UHGV virus genome: UHGV-0134996
Reading direction: 5' to 3' (one strand)
Source: a virus
Length of the DNA stretch: 64,000 nucleotides
In this document: positions 1,736 to 54,842 of the stretch, piece by piece
How the letters are laid out: each line of letters opens with the position of its first letter
How positions within the stretch are numbered: the first letter of the stretch is position 1
Notes under the pieces: model-generated
What the model was told of the DNA's origin: nothing
Database searches by the model: none
The model's input: the letters and a program-made list of their open reading frames with translations, nothing else
Position numbers and translations under genes: made by a program

Positions 1736-2791
1736 TTATTCAGCCGCCACCGGTTTTAACAAGCCAGCATCGAGCAGTTTACGCGTCAACCACTGCTGGC
1801 CTTTACCCGTTAATTGAGGCGTCAACCGTATCTGGTAGCCATCTTCATCATCCAGCACCACTTCTTTCACCGTGAAATACCCCGCATTGATGTACTGCTG
1901 GAACGGCACATTTTTACGTCCACCGGACGCTATCAGGATGCCGTTCTCCCGTAACCAGGCAAACAGCGCGTTTTGCTTAAGTCCAACAACCTTTGCAAAA
2001 TTTCCAATCAGGATCCCCTTAGCCACTGATACCCGGTCGGCAAAATCGACTTTGGGGGCTGCGGCCACCAGCTGCTGATTTAGCTGGTGGGCTTTCTGTT
2101 CCAGAAGTTGCTTTTGTTCAGCCAGTTCGGCAGCCAGGCGCAGAGCTTCGGGCAATGTTTGGGGGATCGCTGGAGAAGCAGCGCTAACCTGCTGCAACTC
2201 CTCCAGCTTGTCGATCAGCGAACGGCGGACCGCTTTTGACTCGCGCGCGGCGACTCGCAGGGCTTGTTTGAAAGTCATGGTGATAATGTCTATGTTTGCA
2301 CCATTTTTGCGACCTACACTTTTTGTGTAGGTCTCACCTTCAAGCTCATCTACAACCTTCTCAATAAACTTATTATTTCTTACTAATGGTTCCCCACATA
2401 ACTTACGCGCCTCATTAACCATCTTTAACAGCGTCTGGCTGTCGATTGTGTCTCCGGTGTTGGGGATAGCATCCATGACCGGTGCTGGTGTGGTTGCTGT
2501 CAAAGGCTTTGTAACGACAACATCTGGTTTGCTTGCTTTCATTCTGTGTGCCTCCTTGCGTGTTTCGGCTGCGACGGTTGCGTAATTCAGATGCCCCTGT
2601 TCGAGCAGGTATTCGCGGATATCAGACAACAGAATGCGGTGAACAGCGTTCTTGTCCTTTCTCCGGTAAAGTTGTTTGGTGATCATGAAGTAGTTGGCAA
2701 TAACACCCGGTATATCCCTGGTACTGATACAGGATGTGTGCTGTTCAATTGCCTCAATCATTTCTTCACGGGTGACTAATGACGTTCTCAT
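1736..2791 (-). CDS. antirepressor, Ant-like with KilA-C type C-terminal domain (second copy in window)
   Basis: 351 aa; C-terminal half near-identical to the ant at 53270-54310 and related to KilA C-terminus; ATG start overlaps upstream icd-like stop (ATGA). Confidence 0.75.
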   Translation of the reverse strand: MRTSLVTREEMIEAIEQHTSCISTRDIPGVIANYFMITKQLYRRKDKNAVHRILLSDIREYLLEQGHLNYATVAAETRKEAHRMKASKPDVVVTKPLTATTPAPVMDAIPNTGDTIDSQTLLKMVNEARKLCGEPLVRNNKFIEKVVDELEGETYTKSVGRKNGANIDIITMTFKQALRVAARESKAVRRSLIDKLEELQQVSAASPAIPQTLPEALRLAAELAEQKQLLEQKAHQLNQQLVAAAPKVDFADRVSVAKGILIGNFAKVVGLKQNALFAWLRENGILIASGGRKNVPFQQYINAGYFTVKEVVLDDEDGYQIRLTPQLTGKGQQWLTRKLLDAGLLKPVAAE

Positions 2792-3009
2792 CGTCCCTCC
2801 TGAGCAGAAGTGTTAACAGGGAGGCACCAGTAACTGAGAGAATTGCGCGAGTTAGTTGAAAAACGGGCAGTAAAAATGCAGGGGCCATCAGGCAATTGAG
2901 AGCGTGCCTCATCTTCTGTCGGTGCAATAACGAAGTGATAGTGACGTTTTTGGCAGGAGTAAAAGCGCCAGATAAATTCAGGATGAGTTGGGGTAGGGAT
3001 AGTAGCCAT
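2788..3009 (-). CDS. Icd-like small protein, translationally coupled to ant-like gene
   Basis: 73 aa from internal ATG with AAGGAGG RBS; paralog of the 73-aa icd at 54307-54528 (PEFIWRFYSC...DGPCIFTARFS). Confidence 0.6.
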   Translation of the reverse strand: MATIPTPTHPEFIWRFYSCQKRHYHFVIAPTEDEARSQLPDGPCIFTARFSTNSRNSLSYWCLPVNTSAQEGR

Positions 3010-3329
3010 ATTGGCAGCCTCCTTAGACGTTGGTATGTAACCACCGCAGAAGAGACCAATCTTGCTGGCGGTGGACTGTACGGAGTTGGCCTTACTGGCG
3101 TCCAAGGTAACCAGCCTACCCGAAGGTAGCCCCATACAGCCCACCATTGTAGAGGTGTGCGTGTACGCCGATACAAAAAAAAGACGCGAGCGGCGTCTGT
3201 ATCGCCTTAGACTTAAGCGGGAGGCCAATCCCGGCACCCGTTTTAATGAGGTGCCTGATAAGCATAAACCGAAAATGCCTCAAGGCGCAAGAGGTCAGGT
3301 TCAATGTAACATCGGCAGTCAAAAAACAC

Positions 3330-50320: not shown

Positions 50321-50476
50321 TTACCTTTCAGATTCGTAGGCTGTGAAGACAGTGACCTCCGTCTGGCTGGTTCGGATTCGTACCTCGCAGAGGTCTTTCC
50401 TCGTTACCAGTGCCGTCACAATGACGGTTAAACAGATGACGATCAGAGCGATTAATATCGCTTTTTGCTGCTTCAT
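50321..50476 (-). CDS. hok: Hok/Gef-family type I toxin
   Basis: 51 aa MKQQKAILIALIVICLTVIVTALVTRKDLCEVRIRTSQTEVTVFTAYESER, near-identical in pattern to E. coli Gef/HokC; frame missing from ORF track. Confidence 0.85.
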   Translation of the reverse strand: MKQQKAILIALIVICLTVIVTALVTRKDLCEVRIRTSQTEVTVFTAYESER

Positions 50477-50534
50477 AGCCTGCTTCTCCTTGACCTTTTG
50501 GTCGGTAAGAGGCTAATCTACGTATGCTAAGCAT
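50328..50534 (-). CDS. mok: Mok-like overlapping reading frame (modulator of killing)
   Basis: 68-aa ORF overlapping nearly all of hok in another frame and starting upstream, as in hok/mok/sok loci. Confidence 0.6.
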   Translation of the reverse strand: MLSIRRLASYRPKGQGEAGYEAAKSDINRSDRHLFNRHCDGTGNEERPLRGTNPNQPDGGHCLHSLRI

Positions 50535-50657
50535 AGATATGGCCTCAGATTAATGTTAAGCGTCTTGCAGGACGCGTAATGTTATCTGGGGCTTTCTTCT
50601 ATCTGCTTTTCGGGTAATGCCTGAAGCAGATAGCCTCAAGCACCCGCAACGATTGTA

Positions 50658-50984
50658 TCAATGTCTGGCTTTTTTTCTATAGAAATCACCTGGAAGGGTG
50701 AATATCCACATCAGAAGAAATGTTGCAGCAAACATGATCCCTAATGGCCAGACCGCGCCAAAGAAAATCCATACTAAGATCTCCTCTGCTCGTTCTTTGC
50801 GGTCGATATCGACAAGCATTTTTCGGCTGATCATGTATACACAGAAGCCAATACAAACATATCCTGCAAAAGCGATCGCTAACTGTAAAAAATCAGATTG
50901 CATCTCCGACCTCAAACTGAAAACGCCAGGTGACTCCAGATTAGAGCAATCTATCACCCTCTGAATCCTGCCGGTATACCCCAT
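50658..50984 (-). CDS. small membrane protein downstream of repL
   Basis: Two hydrophobic helices; overlaps repL 3' end so start likely internal (MQSDFLQ...). Confidence 0.45.
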   Translation of the reverse strand: MGYTGRIQRVIDCSNLESPGVFSLRSEMQSDFLQLAIAFAGYVCIGFCVYMISRKMLVDIDRKERAEEILVWIFFGAVWPLGIMFAATFLLMWIFTLPGDFYRKKARH

Positions 50985-51799
50985 TGTTCGTTATCTTTAT
51001 TTTTGGCTAAAACCGCATTAAGAGCTTCGTTTACCGTCATGCAATGCGGCAGATTATCGAAGTTTGATATCCCGCCAATATCAGGAGAACGCTTGTCCTT
51101 CAGGTAAGCATATTTCCGCGCTGCCGCCTCTACTTTCTGCTTGAACTCATGTTTTTGAGCGCGTTTTTTGGATAACCGCAGATTGTCAGCCTTTGCTTTT
51201 GCCTCAGCGATCCATGAAATCAATTTTTTGAGTCTGGTCGTTCCGGCACCGCCGGAAACTGATCTTTTTGTTTTTTTAACTTGTGACTTCTTATTCTTTA
51301 TTGCCACGTCATCCTGACAGGGGGAGGGGGTATCATTTTGACATGGGGGTGTGGATAAAAAATTAAATAAAGCCAATGTCTTAGCGAGAACAGCTTTAAC
51401 CTTGGTTGCCGCTGAAGAGATCTTTAATTTGCTTTCAATCAGCGCATTTTTGGCTTGTTGTGCGAAGGCCAAAAAGGATGGTGTAAACCGGTACAGGTTA
51501 GCGCGACGTTCACGGTGATCGCCGATAACAATCTCTACAGACAGAATTCCTTTGTTTACAGCTTCACGGAATGCACGAACGACGGTTGATTGGCTATAAC
51601 CAGTTTCTGCCGCGATCAGGCGGTGAGGCTTGTGAATGAAGTATTCACTGGTTGTTGCCGCGAGATTTGCACATTGCGACAGGATATGCCCGGCGCTACG
51701 GGATAGACCGGAGTGTGTTACAAAGCAGGCCAATTCATAGCCAGAAAAAGTAAAATCGCTCATCGTTATACAGCTCAGGAAAGTGACTTTAGCCAGCAT
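50954..51799 (-). CDS. repL: RepL, lytic replicon initiator
   Basis: 281 aa downstream of kilA under the same C1 operator; P1 RepL size and position. Confidence 0.85.
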   Translation of the reverse strand: MLAKVTFLSCITMSDFTFSGYELACFVTHSGLSRSAGHILSQCANLAATTSEYFIHKPHRLIAAETGYSQSTVVRAFREAVNKGILSVEIVIGDHRERRANLYRFTPSFLAFAQQAKNALIESKLKISSAATKVKAVLAKTLALFNFLSTPPCQNDTPSPCQDDVAIKNKKSQVKKTKRSVSGGAGTTRLKKLISWIAEAKAKADNLRLSKKRAQKHEFKQKVEAAARKYAYLKDKRSPDIGGISNFDNLPHCMTVNEALNAVLAKNKDNEQWGIPAGFRG

Positions 51800-51828
51800 T
51801 ACAATGCTGGTGGTTCTTACTACGTCTG

Positions 51829-52629
51829 TTAGCGCGTTGCCGCGACAGGTACCAGCACACCAGCATCAAGCAATCGCTTCATCAGCCACTGCTGACCTTT
51901 GCCGGTTATACGAGTCGTGAAAGAAATCCTGCTTCCATTGCTTGTATCGATCACGGTTTCTTTAAGGGTGAAATACCCACGGGATATGTATTCTTGTTTG
52001 GGGACGTTCCTGCGTTCACCGGTTGCGATCAGAATTCCGTTATCACGCAACCAGGTGAAGAGATAGTTTTGGCCCAGGCCGAGCACTTTGGCATAGTTGC
52101 CGATTAGAACCCCGCTGGCGGTAGCAACGCGTTCGGCGAATTCGACTTTAGGTGCATCCATCAGCATTTTTTGCTCCAGCCGTTGCTTTTGCTCTGCCAG
52201 GTCAGCAGCCAAACGGAGAGCTTCTGGGAGGCTCTTCGGAATAGCAGGTTGTAATCTTCCGGCTCGATAGTCGATAAATGTCTGGTTTACCTTCAGCCGA
52301 AACGCGGGAGAAATCCAGCCTGCGTACTCCACTGCGAGCAATTCATGGGCAAAAGTGCCGCCGCCACGGCCTTCGAACGAAACTATGCAATTCTGCATAG
52401 TTTCTTTTTCAAGCTCTTCGATGAGCTGTTTTGCTGACAGCGTTCTTAGCCATTGAGCTGGCGCTTTATGGGCACCGAGTCCGCTCGCTCTGTGTAGAGC
52501 ATTAAGGTTGTAACGGCCAGCGCGGTCGGTCGTAATTTCAACACCACAAATAACGGGCAGAGTGGTTGAAGGATCGACATTTTGATGAAGGTTTGATATA
52601 TTCATATCCGCATTGAATGTTTGTTGCAT
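51829..52629 (-). CDS. kilA: KilA (KilA-N plus KilA-C domains)
   Basis: 266 aa; C-terminal domain homologous to the Ant C-termini in this window; first gene after operator at 52700. Confidence 0.85.
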   Translation of the reverse strand: MQQTFNADMNISNLHQNVDPSTTLPVICGVEITTDRAGRYNLNALHRASGLGAHKAPAQWLRTLSAKQLIEELEKETMQNCIVSFEGRGGGTFAHELLAVEYAGWISPAFRLKVNQTFIDYRAGRLQPAIPKSLPEALRLAADLAEQKQRLEQKMLMDAPKVEFAERVATASGVLIGNYAKVLGLGQNYLFTWLRDNGILIATGERRNVPKQEYISRGYFTLKETVIDTSNGSRISFTTRITGKGQQWLMKRLLDAGVLVPVAATR

Positions 52630-52699
52630 TTTTTCTCCAAATTTGCATCAACCTTCAATCACCAGCTCGAAATGGTGATTCTTTGCACTCAGAAAACAA

Positions 52700-52716
52700 A
52701 ATTTATTAGAGCAAAT
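52700..52716 (-). promoter_or_regulatory. C1 operator controlling kilA-repL (Op53-like)
   Basis: AATTTATTAGAGCAAAT, 16/17 to reverse complement of consensus, about 70 bp upstream of kilA start. Confidence 0.8.
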
Positions 52717-52840
52717 TTTTCCAGTCCGATCCAGATCGGGTTGGTCGATCTGCTCAGAAACCTGTCAGTTCGCTGGCAGGTTTTTTTGTATAAGGCGTTT
52801 TTCAATGTGGATTTGTGGCTGGCTAAAACGAAAAAGGCCA

Positions 52841-52869
52841 CAGGTTTTACCCTGTGGCCTGTTCGGGCG
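52841..52869 (-). terminator. rho-independent terminator at the end of the icd-ant operon
   Basis: GGCCACAGG-gttttac-CCTGTGGCC hairpin followed on the minus strand by TTTTT. Confidence 0.8.
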
Positions 52870-52914
52870 CAACGCGCTGCTGTTACACTGCGGAACTAAC
52901 GCCCTCCAATGTTG

Positions 52915-53031
52915 TTATGCAATGTGGAGAAGTGAGGCAATCACTGATGCCAACACAGAACTTGACGCTCCGATGATGACAGGAACAATGATGTTGGTCA
53001 CAATCCACTTGCAAGCTTTTTGAAGAGTCAT
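52915..53031 (-). CDS. 38-aa hydrophobic peptide downstream of ant
   Basis: MTLQKACKWIVTNIIVPVIIGASSSVLASVIASLLHIA: ATG with GGAG RBS 7 nt upstream, one predicted TM helix; not in ORF track. Confidence 0.4.
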   Translation of the reverse strand: MTLQKACKWIVTNIIVPVIIGASSSVLASVIASLLHIA

Positions 53032-53100
53032 TACGAAGCTCCGCACACTTGCAACAGCAACTGCTTGCGGCTATCCTCTTGTTGATCAGACATAAGGAAT

Positions 53101-53146
53101 GCCCTCGCTGGTTGCCTCCATGCAACGTTGTGGCGAGGGTTTTTTC
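53101..53146 (+). terminator. plus-strand hairpin plus T-run (terminator-like) facing the small peptide gene
   Basis: GCCCTCGC...GCGAGGG stem followed by TTTTTT on the plus strand; no plus-strand CDS upstream. Confidence 0.5.
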
Positions 53147-53269
53147 TGTCTGGAGGCTACGCATCCAGGAGTTCATAACCCCCGCATAACGTTGCGCCTC
53201 CCCTGAAAAACAGGGTTGGGCATATCGTACACATGCCTGTAATTTATGGCAAATCTTGGTCTGAATACG

Positions 53270-54310
53270 TTAAGACAAGGACGCCACTGGTTTTAACAAG
53301 CCAGCATCAAGTAGCTTGCGAGTCAACCACTGCTGGCCTTTACCCGTTAATTGGGGCGTCAGCCGTATCTGGTAGCCATTTTCATCATCCAGCACCACTT
53401 CTTTCACCGTGAAATACCCGGCGTTGATGTACTGTTGGCGCGGTACGTTTTTGCGCGCACCAAAAGCCATGAGAATGCCGTTCTGGCGCAACCATGAGAA
53501 AAGGGCGTTTTGCTTAAGTCCAACGACCTTTGCAAAGTTCCCGATCAGGATTCCATTAGCCACTGATACCCGGTCGGCAAAATCGACTTTAGGGGCTGCG
53601 GCCACCAGCTGTTGTTCCAGCTGCATTTTCTGTTCTGCCAACTCGGCAGCCAGGCGTAGAGCTTCTGGTAATGTTTGGGGGATCGATGGGGCAGGGGAGT
53701 TTGCCTGCTGCAATTCTTCCAGTTTGTCGATCAGCGAACGGCGGACCGCTTTTGACTCGCGCGCGGCGACTCGCAGGGCTTGTTTGAAAGTCATGGTTAT
53801 GACAAGCATTGATGTTTTGTTCATTTTTTCCACTACACTTTTTGTGTAGTGCTCACCATCAAGCTCATCGAGTATTTTTTCGATGAATTTGTTGTTCCGA
53901 ACCTCTGGTTCCCCACATAACTTACGCGCTTCATTGACCATCTTTAACAGTGTCAGGCTGTCGATTGTGTCTCCGGTGTTGGAGATAACATGCACTGCTG
54001 GTGATGGCGTAGCTGAAGCAACAGGTGCTGGTTTTTCAACATTCAAATTATTACCGGTCATTCTGCGCGCCTCCTTTCTCATTTCTGCTGCCACTGTTGC
54101 GTAACGTAGACGTCCTTGTTCAATCAAATAATCCCTGATCTCGGCTATCAGTAGCCTGTTGATCACAGCCTTATCTGTTCGGGTATAAAAACGTCTGGTT
54201 ATCATGAAATAGTTGGCAATTGCGCCGGGGATCTCCCGTGTCGGCATACAGGTTGTATGCAAAGCGATCGCTTCGGCTATTTCATTACGGGTGACGAGAG
54301 GTGTTTTCAT
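53270..54310 (-). CDS. ant1: Ant1/Ant2 antirepressor (ImmI)
   Basis: 346 aa; start overlaps icd stop (ATGA); adjacent to kilA-repL as in P1 ImmI. Confidence 0.85.
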   Translation of the reverse strand: MKTPLVTRNEIAEAIALHTTCMPTREIPGAIANYFMITRRFYTRTDKAVINRLLIAEIRDYLIEQGRLRYATVAAEMRKEARRMTGNNLNVEKPAPVASATPSPAVHVISNTGDTIDSLTLLKMVNEARKLCGEPEVRNNKFIEKILDELDGEHYTKSVVEKMNKTSMLVITMTFKQALRVAARESKAVRRSLIDKLEELQQANSPAPSIPQTLPEALRLAAELAEQKMQLEQQLVAAAPKVDFADRVSVANGILIGNFAKVVGLKQNALFSWLRQNGILMAFGARKNVPRQQYINAGYFTVKEVVLDDENGYQIRLTPQLTGKGQQWLTRKLLDAGLLKPVASLS

Positions 54311-54528
54311 AAACCCCCCTGAACGTTGGCAGAGAAGGGGAGGCTCCAGTAACTAAGTGAATTGCGCGAGTCAGTTGAAAAACGGGCAGTAAAAATGCAG
54401 GGGCCATCAGGCAATTGAGAGCGTGCTTCGTCTTCAGTTGCTGCGATAACGAAGTGATAGTGGTGTTTTTTACAGGAATAGAAACGCCAGATGAATTCTG
54501 GGCGTGCGCAAGGATTGGCATTAACCAT
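54307..54528 (-). CDS. icd: Icd, interference with cell division
   Basis: 73 aa MVNANPCARPEFIWRFYSCKK..., translationally coupled to ant. Confidence 0.8.
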   Translation of the reverse strand: MVNANPCARPEFIWRFYSCKKHHYHFVIAATEDEARSQLPDGPCIFTARFSTDSRNSLSYWSLPFSANVQGGL

Positions 54529-54842
54529 AGTTACGGCCTCACAATCAGGTTTAACAACCTGCTACCCGCTGCTAAACAGGTGGCAGGACGTGACGGGGTT
54601 AGCAGACTGGCGATTGTGAAACCAGCAGGCCGAAGCCTCCCCATCACGCCCCACCATAATTTGGGCGTAACGCGGTTTTACGGACACAAAAATACCGCAA
54701 TATCGGATATCTGCGGCTGTCCGCACAATCATTCAGGCTGCTAAACCCGGTCGCAGAATTTGCTACGACGGCGGAACTATAAGCCTGAACGATTAAAAGG
54801 TCAATATGATGCGAAAAGATAGCATTCGCGACTTAAAAATAC

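Follow-up and report, generated by a model that had tools for sequence, protein, structure and literature searches.

A putative diverged ldr/rdl-type toxin-antitoxin element at the end of ant in a P1-like phage-plasmid

The 64,000-nucleotide (nt) sequence of UHGV virus genome UHGV-0134996, here called the window, is that of a P1-like phage-plasmid. On its minus strand the gene ant stops at position 53270, where a first-pass annotation made from the sequence had placed it, and this stop lies within a 495-bp segment (52788-53282) that is an insert relative to phage P1 and separates ant from the kilA/repL control region. The segment comprises a small hydrophobic open reading frame (ORF), a predicted folded mRNA with its own promoter and terminator, and a candidate antisense RNA gene on the opposite strand. 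It is probably a single diverged long direct repeat (LDR) element of the ldr/rdl type, inserted between the ant stop and the kilA/repL control region, as judged by comparison of sequences. The LDR elements of Escherichia coli K-12 are type I toxin-antitoxin loci, ldrA-D / rdlA-D, reportedly described by Kawano et al. 2002.

Parts of the element and their LDR counterparts

The ORF (52915-53031, minus strand, read from 53031 to 52915) encodes MTLQKACKWIVTNIIVPVIIGASSSVLASVIASLLHIA, a putative toxin of 38 amino acids (aa) with one predicted membrane helix. Its grand average of hydropathy (GRAVY) is 1.44 and its highest 19-residue hydropathy window 2.28, values that fit a single helix, and a Shine-Dalgarno sequence, GGAG (53039-53042, minus strand), lies 7 nt ahead of the ATG. 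An unannotated 38-aa minus-strand ORF, a GGAG ribosome-binding site at correct spacing and one transmembrane helix had all been proposed in the first-pass annotation, and all three hold. The ORF list used there gives the frame as a 43-aa ORF from an in-frame GTG at 53046. Among relatives of the window, C>T at 53046 in 6 of 14 changes this GTG, five codons 5' of the toxin ATG, to ATG, which would allow a 43-aa form (MRSFVMTLQ...) with no ribosome site ahead of it.

Because the peptide begins M-T and has the P17...G21 spacing of Ldr, and because Rfam rdlD gives a weak full-length match, the four LDR units of K-12 were fetched and aligned with the window; the reference families are RF01813 (rdlD) in Rfam and PF13940 (Ldr_toxin) in Pfam. 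An nhmmer profile built from K-12 LDR-A to LDR-D and run on the 64-kb window matches at 53049-53218 (expectation value, E, 5.5e-9) and at 52825-52872 (E 2.3e-6), collinearly and on the same strand, with no further match elsewhere in the window. Near-identical copies at other loci give a one-piece match over profile positions 4-380 (E ~1e-15). Alignment of the window with K-12 LDR-A to D by MAFFT displays conserved blocks whose order is kept along the whole unit. A scan of genome contigs with the pattern AACRTTGCGCCTCMCC returned mostly chance matches, and among the matches listed at least 21 usable further LDR copies were found, from E. coli, E. ruysiae, Citrobacter, Klebsiella, Pseudocitrobacter, Kluyvera, and Atlantibacter. 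In the joint alignment the mRNA -10 box, 5' hairpin with the invariant GAGGCGCAA after it, Rdl promoter, Rdl stem and U-run, start codon, stop codon, and terminator correspond, as do the blocks (T/C)GACGCCC and TTCGGGCGCA of the 3' untranslated region (3'UTR) and the GGCC(G/A)CAGG terminator sequence. The spacings are likewise close: 52 nt from start codon to antisense 5' end in the window and 48 nt in ldrD/rdlD, an antisense RNA of ~62 nt vs 64 nt for rdlD, 6 nt from the end of the -10 box to the antisense start both in the window (predicted start) and in annotated rdlD, and an ORF of 38 aa vs 35 aa for ldrD. MAFFT and nhmmer alone bring out the link between insert and LDR elements; among 5,426 E. 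coli genomes blastn of the insert returned identical copies only, with no link to chromosomal LDRs. A type I toxin-antitoxin locus had been one option raised in the first-pass annotation from the layout, and the part-by-part alignment of the whole 0.5-kb segment with E. coli LDR elements now supports it by homology and not by resemblance of layout alone.

The predicted promoter of the toxin mRNA (53224-53252, minus strand) consists of a -35 sequence TTGCCA (53252-53247), a 17-nt spacer, and a -10 sequence TACGAT (53229-53224), and scores 9/12 in a promoter scan. Its -10 sequence aligns with the TAGAAT, TAGTAT, or TAGGAT of LDR copies, and the promoter sequence is invariant in 19 relatives, in five of which the insertion sequence (IS) IS1 sits at 53239/53240. 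Transcription from here to the terminator would give an mRNA of ~388-390 nt (52826-53217, minus strand) with its 5' end at a presumed position. The 388-nt form has a predicted minimum free energy (MFE) of -169 kcal/mol, with z -7.83 relative to shuffled sequences, close to the z of -7.65 for K-12 ldrD mRNA; the plus-strand control gives -144 kcal/mol and z -5.15, the minus strand being 25 kcal/mol more stable. Folding thus models the toxin mRNA as long, stable, and highly structured.

Several features of the predicted fold have LDR counterparts. A 5'-terminal hairpin, CCCUG-UUUUU-CAGGG (53201-53215, minus strand), stands directly ahead of the conserved GAGGCGCAA and corresponds to GCCGG..CCGGU in E. 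coli, CCCGA..UCGGG in Kluyvera, and CCAG..CUGG in Atlantibacter, the stem being preserved through changes on both sides across LDR copies. A fold-back element, GGCGCAACG (53190-53198, minus strand), is predicted to pair with CGUUGCGCC at 52874-52866, just ahead of the terminator; these two blocks are the most conserved parts of LDR units, and in the MFE structure 11 of the first 45 nt are paired with the last 100 nt of the mRNA. A 3'UTR segment, GGAGGGCGUUAGUUCCGCA (52889-52907, minus strand), is the predicted partner of the start codon and ribosome site of the toxin, and in the MFE structure 15 of the 20 nt of the initiation region (-14..+6) are paired with the 3'UTR. This segment is the counterpart of the conserved (T/C)GACGCCC block, which in most LDR copies also pairs with GGCGGCUAUAUGACG. 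Both the 5'-3' pairing and an occluded initiation region are predicted in most of 13 other LDR copies, with differing paired sequences.

The mRNA would end at an intrinsic terminator (52826-52860, minus strand; terminator scan, 10 pairs) with a stem from 52860 to 52835, a U-run to ~52826, and a fold of -24.0 kcal/mol (z -4.9). It is homologous to LDR terminators, with 97.1% of cells paired across 14 sequences, and the window carries a compensatory G-C to A-U double change. A terminator had been reported nearby, at 52841-52869, as that of the ant operon; it exists, about 10 nt from that position, and it is instead the terminator of the LDR element, homologous to that of ldr mRNA, which probably also ends read-through from ant.

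On the opposite strand an Rdl-type promoter (53049-53077, plus strand), recognized by the LDR alignment, has a -35 sequence TTGCAA, a 17-nt spacer, and a -10 sequence TATCCT (53072-53077). It aligns with TTG(T/C)AA-17-TAT(T/C)CT in all 21 LDR copies, where GCGGCTAT is invariant, and is unchanged in 19 relatives, although its score of 8/12 is under the threshold of the promoter scan. The Rdl-like RNA expected from it on the grounds of rdl homology and fold, ~62 nt long (53084-53145, plus strand), would consist of a 16-nt 5' tail, a hairpin (stem 53101-53139), and U6 (T6 at 53140-53145). Its predicted fold (-22.4 kcal/mol, z -3.0) has the shape of RdlD (-28.2 kcal/mol, z -4.15). The hairpin with T6 was correctly noticed at first pass; a simple terminator scan misses it because its apical part is over the scan's loop limit. 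The short antisense RNA then suggested is likewise favored by homology to rdl, at ~53084-53145; its supposed position opposite the 5' end of the coding region does not stand, as it lies opposite the leader, 52 nt 5' of the start codon. The locus thus appears to encode in cis an RNA of ~60 nt opposite the mRNA 5'UTR, contained within the mRNA and off the ribosome site. RdlD similarly overlaps the 5'UTR of ldrD, clear of the ribosome site, and has been proposed to act via a leader ORF, ldrX, as Sok acts via mok (PMC4147584, PMC8167048, PMC8594479). The outer stem of the Rdl hairpin has undergone a double change from C-G to U-A, of which Kluyvera holds the U-G intermediate, and G>A at 53132, polymorphic among relatives, replaces a U-G pair of the Rdl-like stem by U-A. 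As MAFFT placed the short hairpins of the window out of register, pairs were formally counted only for the terminator, and the other hairpins were read from the sequences.

A leader ORF is less readily assigned. The candidate (52883-53164, minus strand) has 93 aa from ATG 53164 or 97 aa from 53176, and its first ~45 codons are in a frame homologous to leader ORFs that end at the ldr start codon in K-12 LDR-A and Klebsiella (..RIAA..C.C..) and are taken to be ldrX. The 93-aa frame is not closed at the toxin start and continues through the whole toxin ORF. A conjectural alternative is a 20-aa ORF, MSDQQEDSRKQLLLQVCGAS (53031-53093, minus strand), whose UAA overlaps the toxin AUG as UAAUG and whose own AUG and GAGGG ribosome site are within the stretch complementary to the Rdl-like RNA. 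It is poorly conserved among relatives; leader ORFs are variable or missing among LDR copies themselves. The leader ORFs of the window belong to no family in Pfam, NCBIfam, PHROGs, or PADLOC.

From these parts we infer the transcript ends, leader coupling, toxicity, and role of the module as follows. A constitutive promoter just downstream of ant (-10 at 53229-53224) would produce a highly folded mRNA of ~390 nt, predicted to be translationally inert, with its two ends paired together and the 3'UTR paired to the ribosome site and AUG of the toxin. The opposite-strand promoter at 53049-53077 would produce the ~62-nt Rdl-like RNA (53084-53145), fully complementary to the mRNA leader ~50 nt 5' of the toxin start. 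As proposed for RdlD and ldrX, this RNA may block a leader frame or structure needed for toxin translation, may trigger cleavage of the duplex, or both. Were the short RNA not replenished, the mRNA would be translated, and the 38-residue membrane peptide would stop growth or kill. On a phage-plasmid the likeliest pay-off would be stabilization of the element or competition with other elements.

Relation to LDR and hok/sok systems

The window and the K-12 LDR elements have in common a unit of ~0.5 kb and the order of its parts: mRNA promoter, 5' hairpin, GAGGCGCAA(Y)GTTGCG block, opposite-strand Rdl gene (TTGYAA-17-TATYCT), ribosome site, small hydrophobic ORF, conserved 3'UTR blocks, and GGCC(G/A)CAGG terminator. 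In both, the ~60-nt antisense RNA lies ~50 nt 5' of the start codon and wholly within the mRNA, which is very stable on prediction and has its initiation region occluded. However, identity over aligned columns is ~50-55%, with the coding part near saturation, and the window unit is single where the K-12 elements are in tandem. Its leader frame, unlike theirs, is unclosed at the toxin start, its Rdl hairpin lacks an apical stem, and it is carried by a P1-like phage-plasmid, whereas mobile elements have been reported to carry no Ldr (PMC5367252). The start and stop codons of the peptide align with those of ldr with three extra codons between them, and M1-T2, P17-V-I-x-G21, and, after a 4-residue insertion (ASSS), LASxI are common to the peptide and LdrD. 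The peptide has 38 residues and not 35, and ends SLLHIA, not W..(N/K)(K/R)K.

Similar peptides are found in two LDR-type loci for which no description was found in the literature. Kluyvera sp. L043 has tandem copies at ~876-1250 and ~1328-1701, and Atlantibacter sp. L134 has three copies between ~4529 and ~5915; their 30-aa peptides are MTFREALVIAVVTSVIGPIVVTLICHFFNL and MTFKQAFWLAVLTSIIGPIVVALIRYFFSF, respectively. Like the window peptide, these have no Trp and charged tail and are missed by Pfam Ldr_toxin and by NCBIfam, and they sit on the same scaffold. They look like an unrecognized toxin subtype on an LDR scaffold. MT(F/L)..A and T(S/N)II.P(I/V)(V/I)(V/I) are common to them and the window peptide, whose likeness to Ldr and to the 30-aa peptides modestly exceeds that of composition-matched shuffles (p 0.006-0.02; Ldr ~0.02). 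At the RNA level, Kluyvera and the window have in common the CCCUCG variant of the Rdl stem, and Atlantibacter and the window AACGTTGCGCC, with leaders 71% identical. Both loci differ from the window in having chromosomal tandem copies, shorter peptides, a full-length Rdl hairpin, and a coding region only ~40% identical. The occurrence of tail-less peptides on these units indicates that the regulatory scaffold is conserved while the toxin varies.

Ldr/Rdl has been treated as Hok/Sok-like in organization (PMC8594479, PMC8167048), and the likeness extends to the window. As in hok/mok/sok of plasmid R1 and its relatives, the mRNA is predicted to be stable and folded with 5'-3' fold-back, the antisense RNA is directed against the leader and not the ribosome site of the toxin, and the candidate 93-aa leader frame extends over the whole toxin ORF in the manner of mok over hok. 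The sequences, however, are unrelated: at 53029-53183 Rfam sok reaches only 14.2 bits (E 4.3), and the peptide is not Hok-like and has no Hok domain. A true hok/mok/sok locus is found just downstream of repL (50321-50645, minus strand), with a sok RNA at 50471-50645 (Rfam, 114.9 bits), a Hok of 51 aa (50321-50476), and a Mok-like ORF of 68 aa (50328-50534). The window contains, then, two unrelated type I modules ~2.4 kb apart, hok/sok and the LDR-like unit.

Conservation among relatives and competing readings

Every copy of the unit that was found, whether in a plasmid (21), a 'chromosome' record (2), a viral contig (7), or a metagenome contig (2), belongs to one lineage with at least 97% identity. 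More distant homologs of the peptide were sought in several ways. A tblastn search of plasmids and phages recovered the same lineage only, a search of 5.8 billion proteins recovered one partial 69-aa 'hypothetical protein' from an IS-interrupted copy, and a degenerate-codon scan of metagenomes and viral contigs for TNIIVPVIIG recovered no divergent relatives, so that the coding frame can be tested only on ~2% divergence. Within the lineage conservation of the ORF, which the first-pass annotation had named as a check, is what is observed: the ORF is open in 20 of 20 copies examined, and uninterrupted modules carry three synonymous changes (G21, A22, L27) and no non-synonymous ones, where 26% synonymous would be expected (p ~0.017). 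Modules interrupted by IS elements carry one synonymous change (I14) and two non-synonymous ones (I10V, K8E). These counts are small and only suggestive.

Of the 19 relatives aligned, 11 have intact modules; two independent IS events have struck the 0.5-kb module in others. An IS annotated with an 'integrase core domain' has made a 6-bp duplication (CACACT) at 53044-53049, just 5' of the toxin ribosome site, in L002, L147, L153, and L154, and parts the toxin ORF from both leader and promoter. In L146, L008, L010, L152, and L154, IS1 interrupts the toxin promoter at 53239/53240, between -35 and -10, and in the annotated IS1 relatives L146 and L154 the ant side has been replaced by other DNA. 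Severing the toxin from its promoter or leader, these recurrent insertions amount to natural knock-outs, for which intact plasmids could serve as comparison.

A number of observations weigh against assignment of the segment to a functional LDR element. The peptide has no Pfam (PF13940) or NCBIfam match at E <= 10 (LdrD as positive control scores 93.7 bits), and BLASTP of the peptide with LdrD returns no alignment; PHROGs and PADLOC provide no family either. The signature of the Ldr/Fst superfamily consists of a conserved Trp beyond the membrane helix and then a run of clustered charged residues (PMC2887945), and the peptide has neither, ending ...VIASLLHIA with no Lys, Arg, Asp, or Glu past residue 9. 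The Rdl-like hairpin is without the apical CAGGU/ACCUG stem. The match of Rfam rdlD at 53084-53145 spans the full model but, at 18.4 bits, falls short of the gathering score of 50, and a covariance model built here from 21 Rdl sequences gives 18.3 bits (E 0.028), tied with a hairpin and U-run at 28833-28873 (plus strand; GUCAAGGCUUAAGAAAAGCCC...GGGCUUUUCUGUU; 18.3 bits) that is taken for an ordinary terminator since no LDR homology surrounds it. Taken by itself the RNA evidence for likeness to Rdl is marginal. The absence of a leader ORF arranged as in LDR-A makes the coupling step uncertain, and the report of K-12 Ldr-RdlD without post-segregational killing (PMC5367252) makes a stabilizing role a guess; in addition, hok/sok is already present in the same window. 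Nor is the unit a direct repeat: it is a single copy in the window and occurs at one place per record in the plasmid matches, second places being found only where an IS splits it. Finally, with copies at least 97% identical, the synonymous-only pattern rests on three events.

Some of these observations would suit a decayed relic, a former LDR element with no functional toxin that persists between the lytic replicon and the immI operon as no more than a spacer and terminator. The peptide lacks the C-terminal signature of its family and goes unrecognized by Pfam and NCBIfam, the Rdl-like hairpin is truncated at its apex, and no LDR-A-type leader ORF ends at the toxin start. Moreover, IS elements occupy the module in 9 of the 19 aligned relatives with no apparent harm, and GGAG has become GGAU (53039) in one intact copy. 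Yet both promoters, ribosome site, ORF, terminator, and long-range pairings are all intact, the ORF remains open in every copy examined with only synonymous changes in uninterrupted modules, and the mRNA is as over-structured as the functional ldrD mRNA. The tandem units of Kluyvera and Atlantibacter are also tail-less, so loss of the tail alone is no sign of decay. Decay is accordingly unlikely, though it keeps an appreciable chance.

A more speculative extension of the LDR assignment, which we consider doubtful, is that the LDR unit is a transferable RNA chassis whose promoters, fold-back mRNA, and Rdl antisense RNA persist but whose toxin may freely diverge or give way to another, and that the phage-plasmid copy has been wired to the end of the c4-icd-ant operon as an immunity-coupled kill switch or host shut-off device and not for plain addiction. 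If so, the 35-aa Ldr, the tail-less 30-aa peptides of Kluyvera and Atlantibacter, and the 38-aa peptide would be three outcomes of the same process, and the lifting of immunity would flood the cell with toxin-bearing read-through transcripts outnumbering the short antisense RNA.

Read-through from ant also enters a reading that dispenses with the toxin-antitoxin module, and which seems quite improbable. Here the antirepressor operon would have the peptide as a small membrane effector, produced for the most part from c4-icd-ant read-through once immunity is lifted and serving the phage, for example in exclusion, as an aid to lysis timing, or in host shut-off. The first minus-strand terminator after the ant stop (53270) is that at 52860-52826, with none ahead of the toxin ORF, so read-through from the immunity operon would also carry the toxin frame, and the insert is fused to the last codons of ant. 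Co-expression of the peptide with the antirepressor, as conceived at first pass, is in this respect unblocked by any terminator; but with a predicted promoter of its own, downstream of the ant stop, the peptide mRNA would not simply be co-expressed with ant. That promoter is conserved with LDR promoters, the module brings an antisense RNA gene whose sole evident target is the toxin mRNA, homologous chromosomal elements work with no ant gene, and the predicted sequestration of the ribosome site does not depend on the upstream transcript. Specific support for an effector role was not found.

The least probable alternative, which we give very little weight, is a longer antisense RNA of ~140-150 nt that would overlap the start codon and ribosome site directly, from promoter-like plus-strand sites inside the ORF (TTGACG-16-AACAAT at 52962-52989 and ATGACA-17-CACAAT at 52976-53004, both 9/12 in the promoter scan); these sites lie in the non-conserved coding part with no LDR counterpart, a synonymous polymorphism (52966 C>A, in 12 of 14 relatives compared) falls within the -35 hexamer of the first, and the downstream TTGCAA-17-TATCCT is kept in all 22 family members with rdlD's exact spacing to the RNA start.

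The assignment to the LDR family bears on the supposed distribution of these elements. Ldr/Rdl has been described as chromosome-only, restricted to enterobacteria, not horizontally spread, and not found on mobile elements (PMC2887945, PMC5367252). The P1-like phage-plasmids that appear to carry a complete LDR-type unit here are bona fide ones, from E. albertii, E. coli, and Salmonella; no literature description of an LDR unit on a phage-plasmid was found, and no annotation reports the module. To judge by its sequence, the locus is a divergent variant of the Ldr/Rdl family and not a new kind of system. As the toxin is recognized by no protein-family library, surveys based on peptides would under-count the family, and searches based on the locus or the RNA would recover more of it. 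Classical LDR matches in PLSDB were considered as a sign that Ldr is already known on plasmids, and this was rejected: the three records sampled (NZ_CP010135.1, NZ_CP082081.1, CP088432.1; L155-L158) are all chromosomal in context, with neighbors prfA-prmC-sirB-kdsA-ldr-chaA-chaB and no replicon type, and look like chromosome fragments deposited as plasmids.

Setting in the P1-like genome

Over the region the window is 100% identical to a plasmid record of E. coli EC23, and it shares 97-99% identity with 21 plasmids, of which one is from Salmonella and the other 20 from Escherichia (E. albertii, E. coli). Carrier strains include E. coli EC23 (NZ_JBXRYE010000003.1) and E. albertii RM15116 (p2RM15116). 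The insert takes the place of ~17 bp of P1 at the end of ant, the flanks being 98.2% (50940-52787) and 93.8% (53283-54800) identical to P1, and alters the Ant C-terminus from AIG* in P1 to ASLS*. The junction of immI and lytic replicon in P1 (ant - Op53/P53 - P53as) has the same flanks, with c4 RNA, icd, ant, the P53as promoter and terminator, kilA, and repL; in P1 the ant stop is only 6 bp from the shared block, whereas in the window the insert intervenes. P1, P7, SJ46, RCS47, and the 18 others that make up the 22 P1/P7/SJ46-type records of the phage collection have no insert at this junction; against this collection megablast and blastn of the insert matched only the P1-type flank.

The genes around the insert are those of P1, all on the minus strand: repL (50954-51799) and kilA (51829-52629) on one side, and on the other ant (53270-54310), icd (54307-54528), and the C4 RNA (54576-54661). 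On the plus strand a P53as (PaskilA) promoter is predicted at 52574-52602 by the promoter scan, in keeping with P1 annotation, which gives the PaskilA promoter and start site. The terminator of the P53as antisense RNA, a P1-type hairpin with T7 (52761-52787), adjoins the module from outside and sits within a 138-bp block (52650-52787) 92-94% identical to P1-type phage records. The module stands exactly at the boundary of the immunity operon and the lytic replicon, where it offers a simple test case for stabilization of a replicon by LDR elements. The phd/doc toxin-antitoxin system is known from P1; beside this and hok/sok, the module would be the third toxin-antitoxin-type system on these elements.

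Some RefSeq relatives carry in this region an annotated plus-strand 'hypothetical protein' of 132 aa, WP_063099948.1 (52621-53023). Its frame runs across promoters, the P53 operator, both terminators, and the strand opposite the toxin ORF, and a 1-bp G indel (52892/52893) breaks it in the window into ORFs of 92 and 72 aa; on these grounds it was rejected as spurious, being probably an artefact. One 'chromosome' record, NZ_CP007393.1 (E. coli ST2747, 2224904-2233384; L005), contains the same repL-kilA-LDR-like-ant-icd block, with a longer ant (463 aa) and an adjoining truncated tail-tip gene, and represents either an integrated P1-like element or an assembly join.

Elsewhere in the window there is a second c4-type immunity operon (1736-3254, minus strand), with a C4 antisense RNA (3064-3151, 75.9 bits), an isrK-like RNA (3177-3254, 60.8 bits), and a 351-aa Ant-like ORF (1736-2791) that is followed by no LDR-like unit. 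Three tRNA genes (31543-31615, 33246-33318, and 33324-33396, minus strand) are as expected for a P1-type genome.

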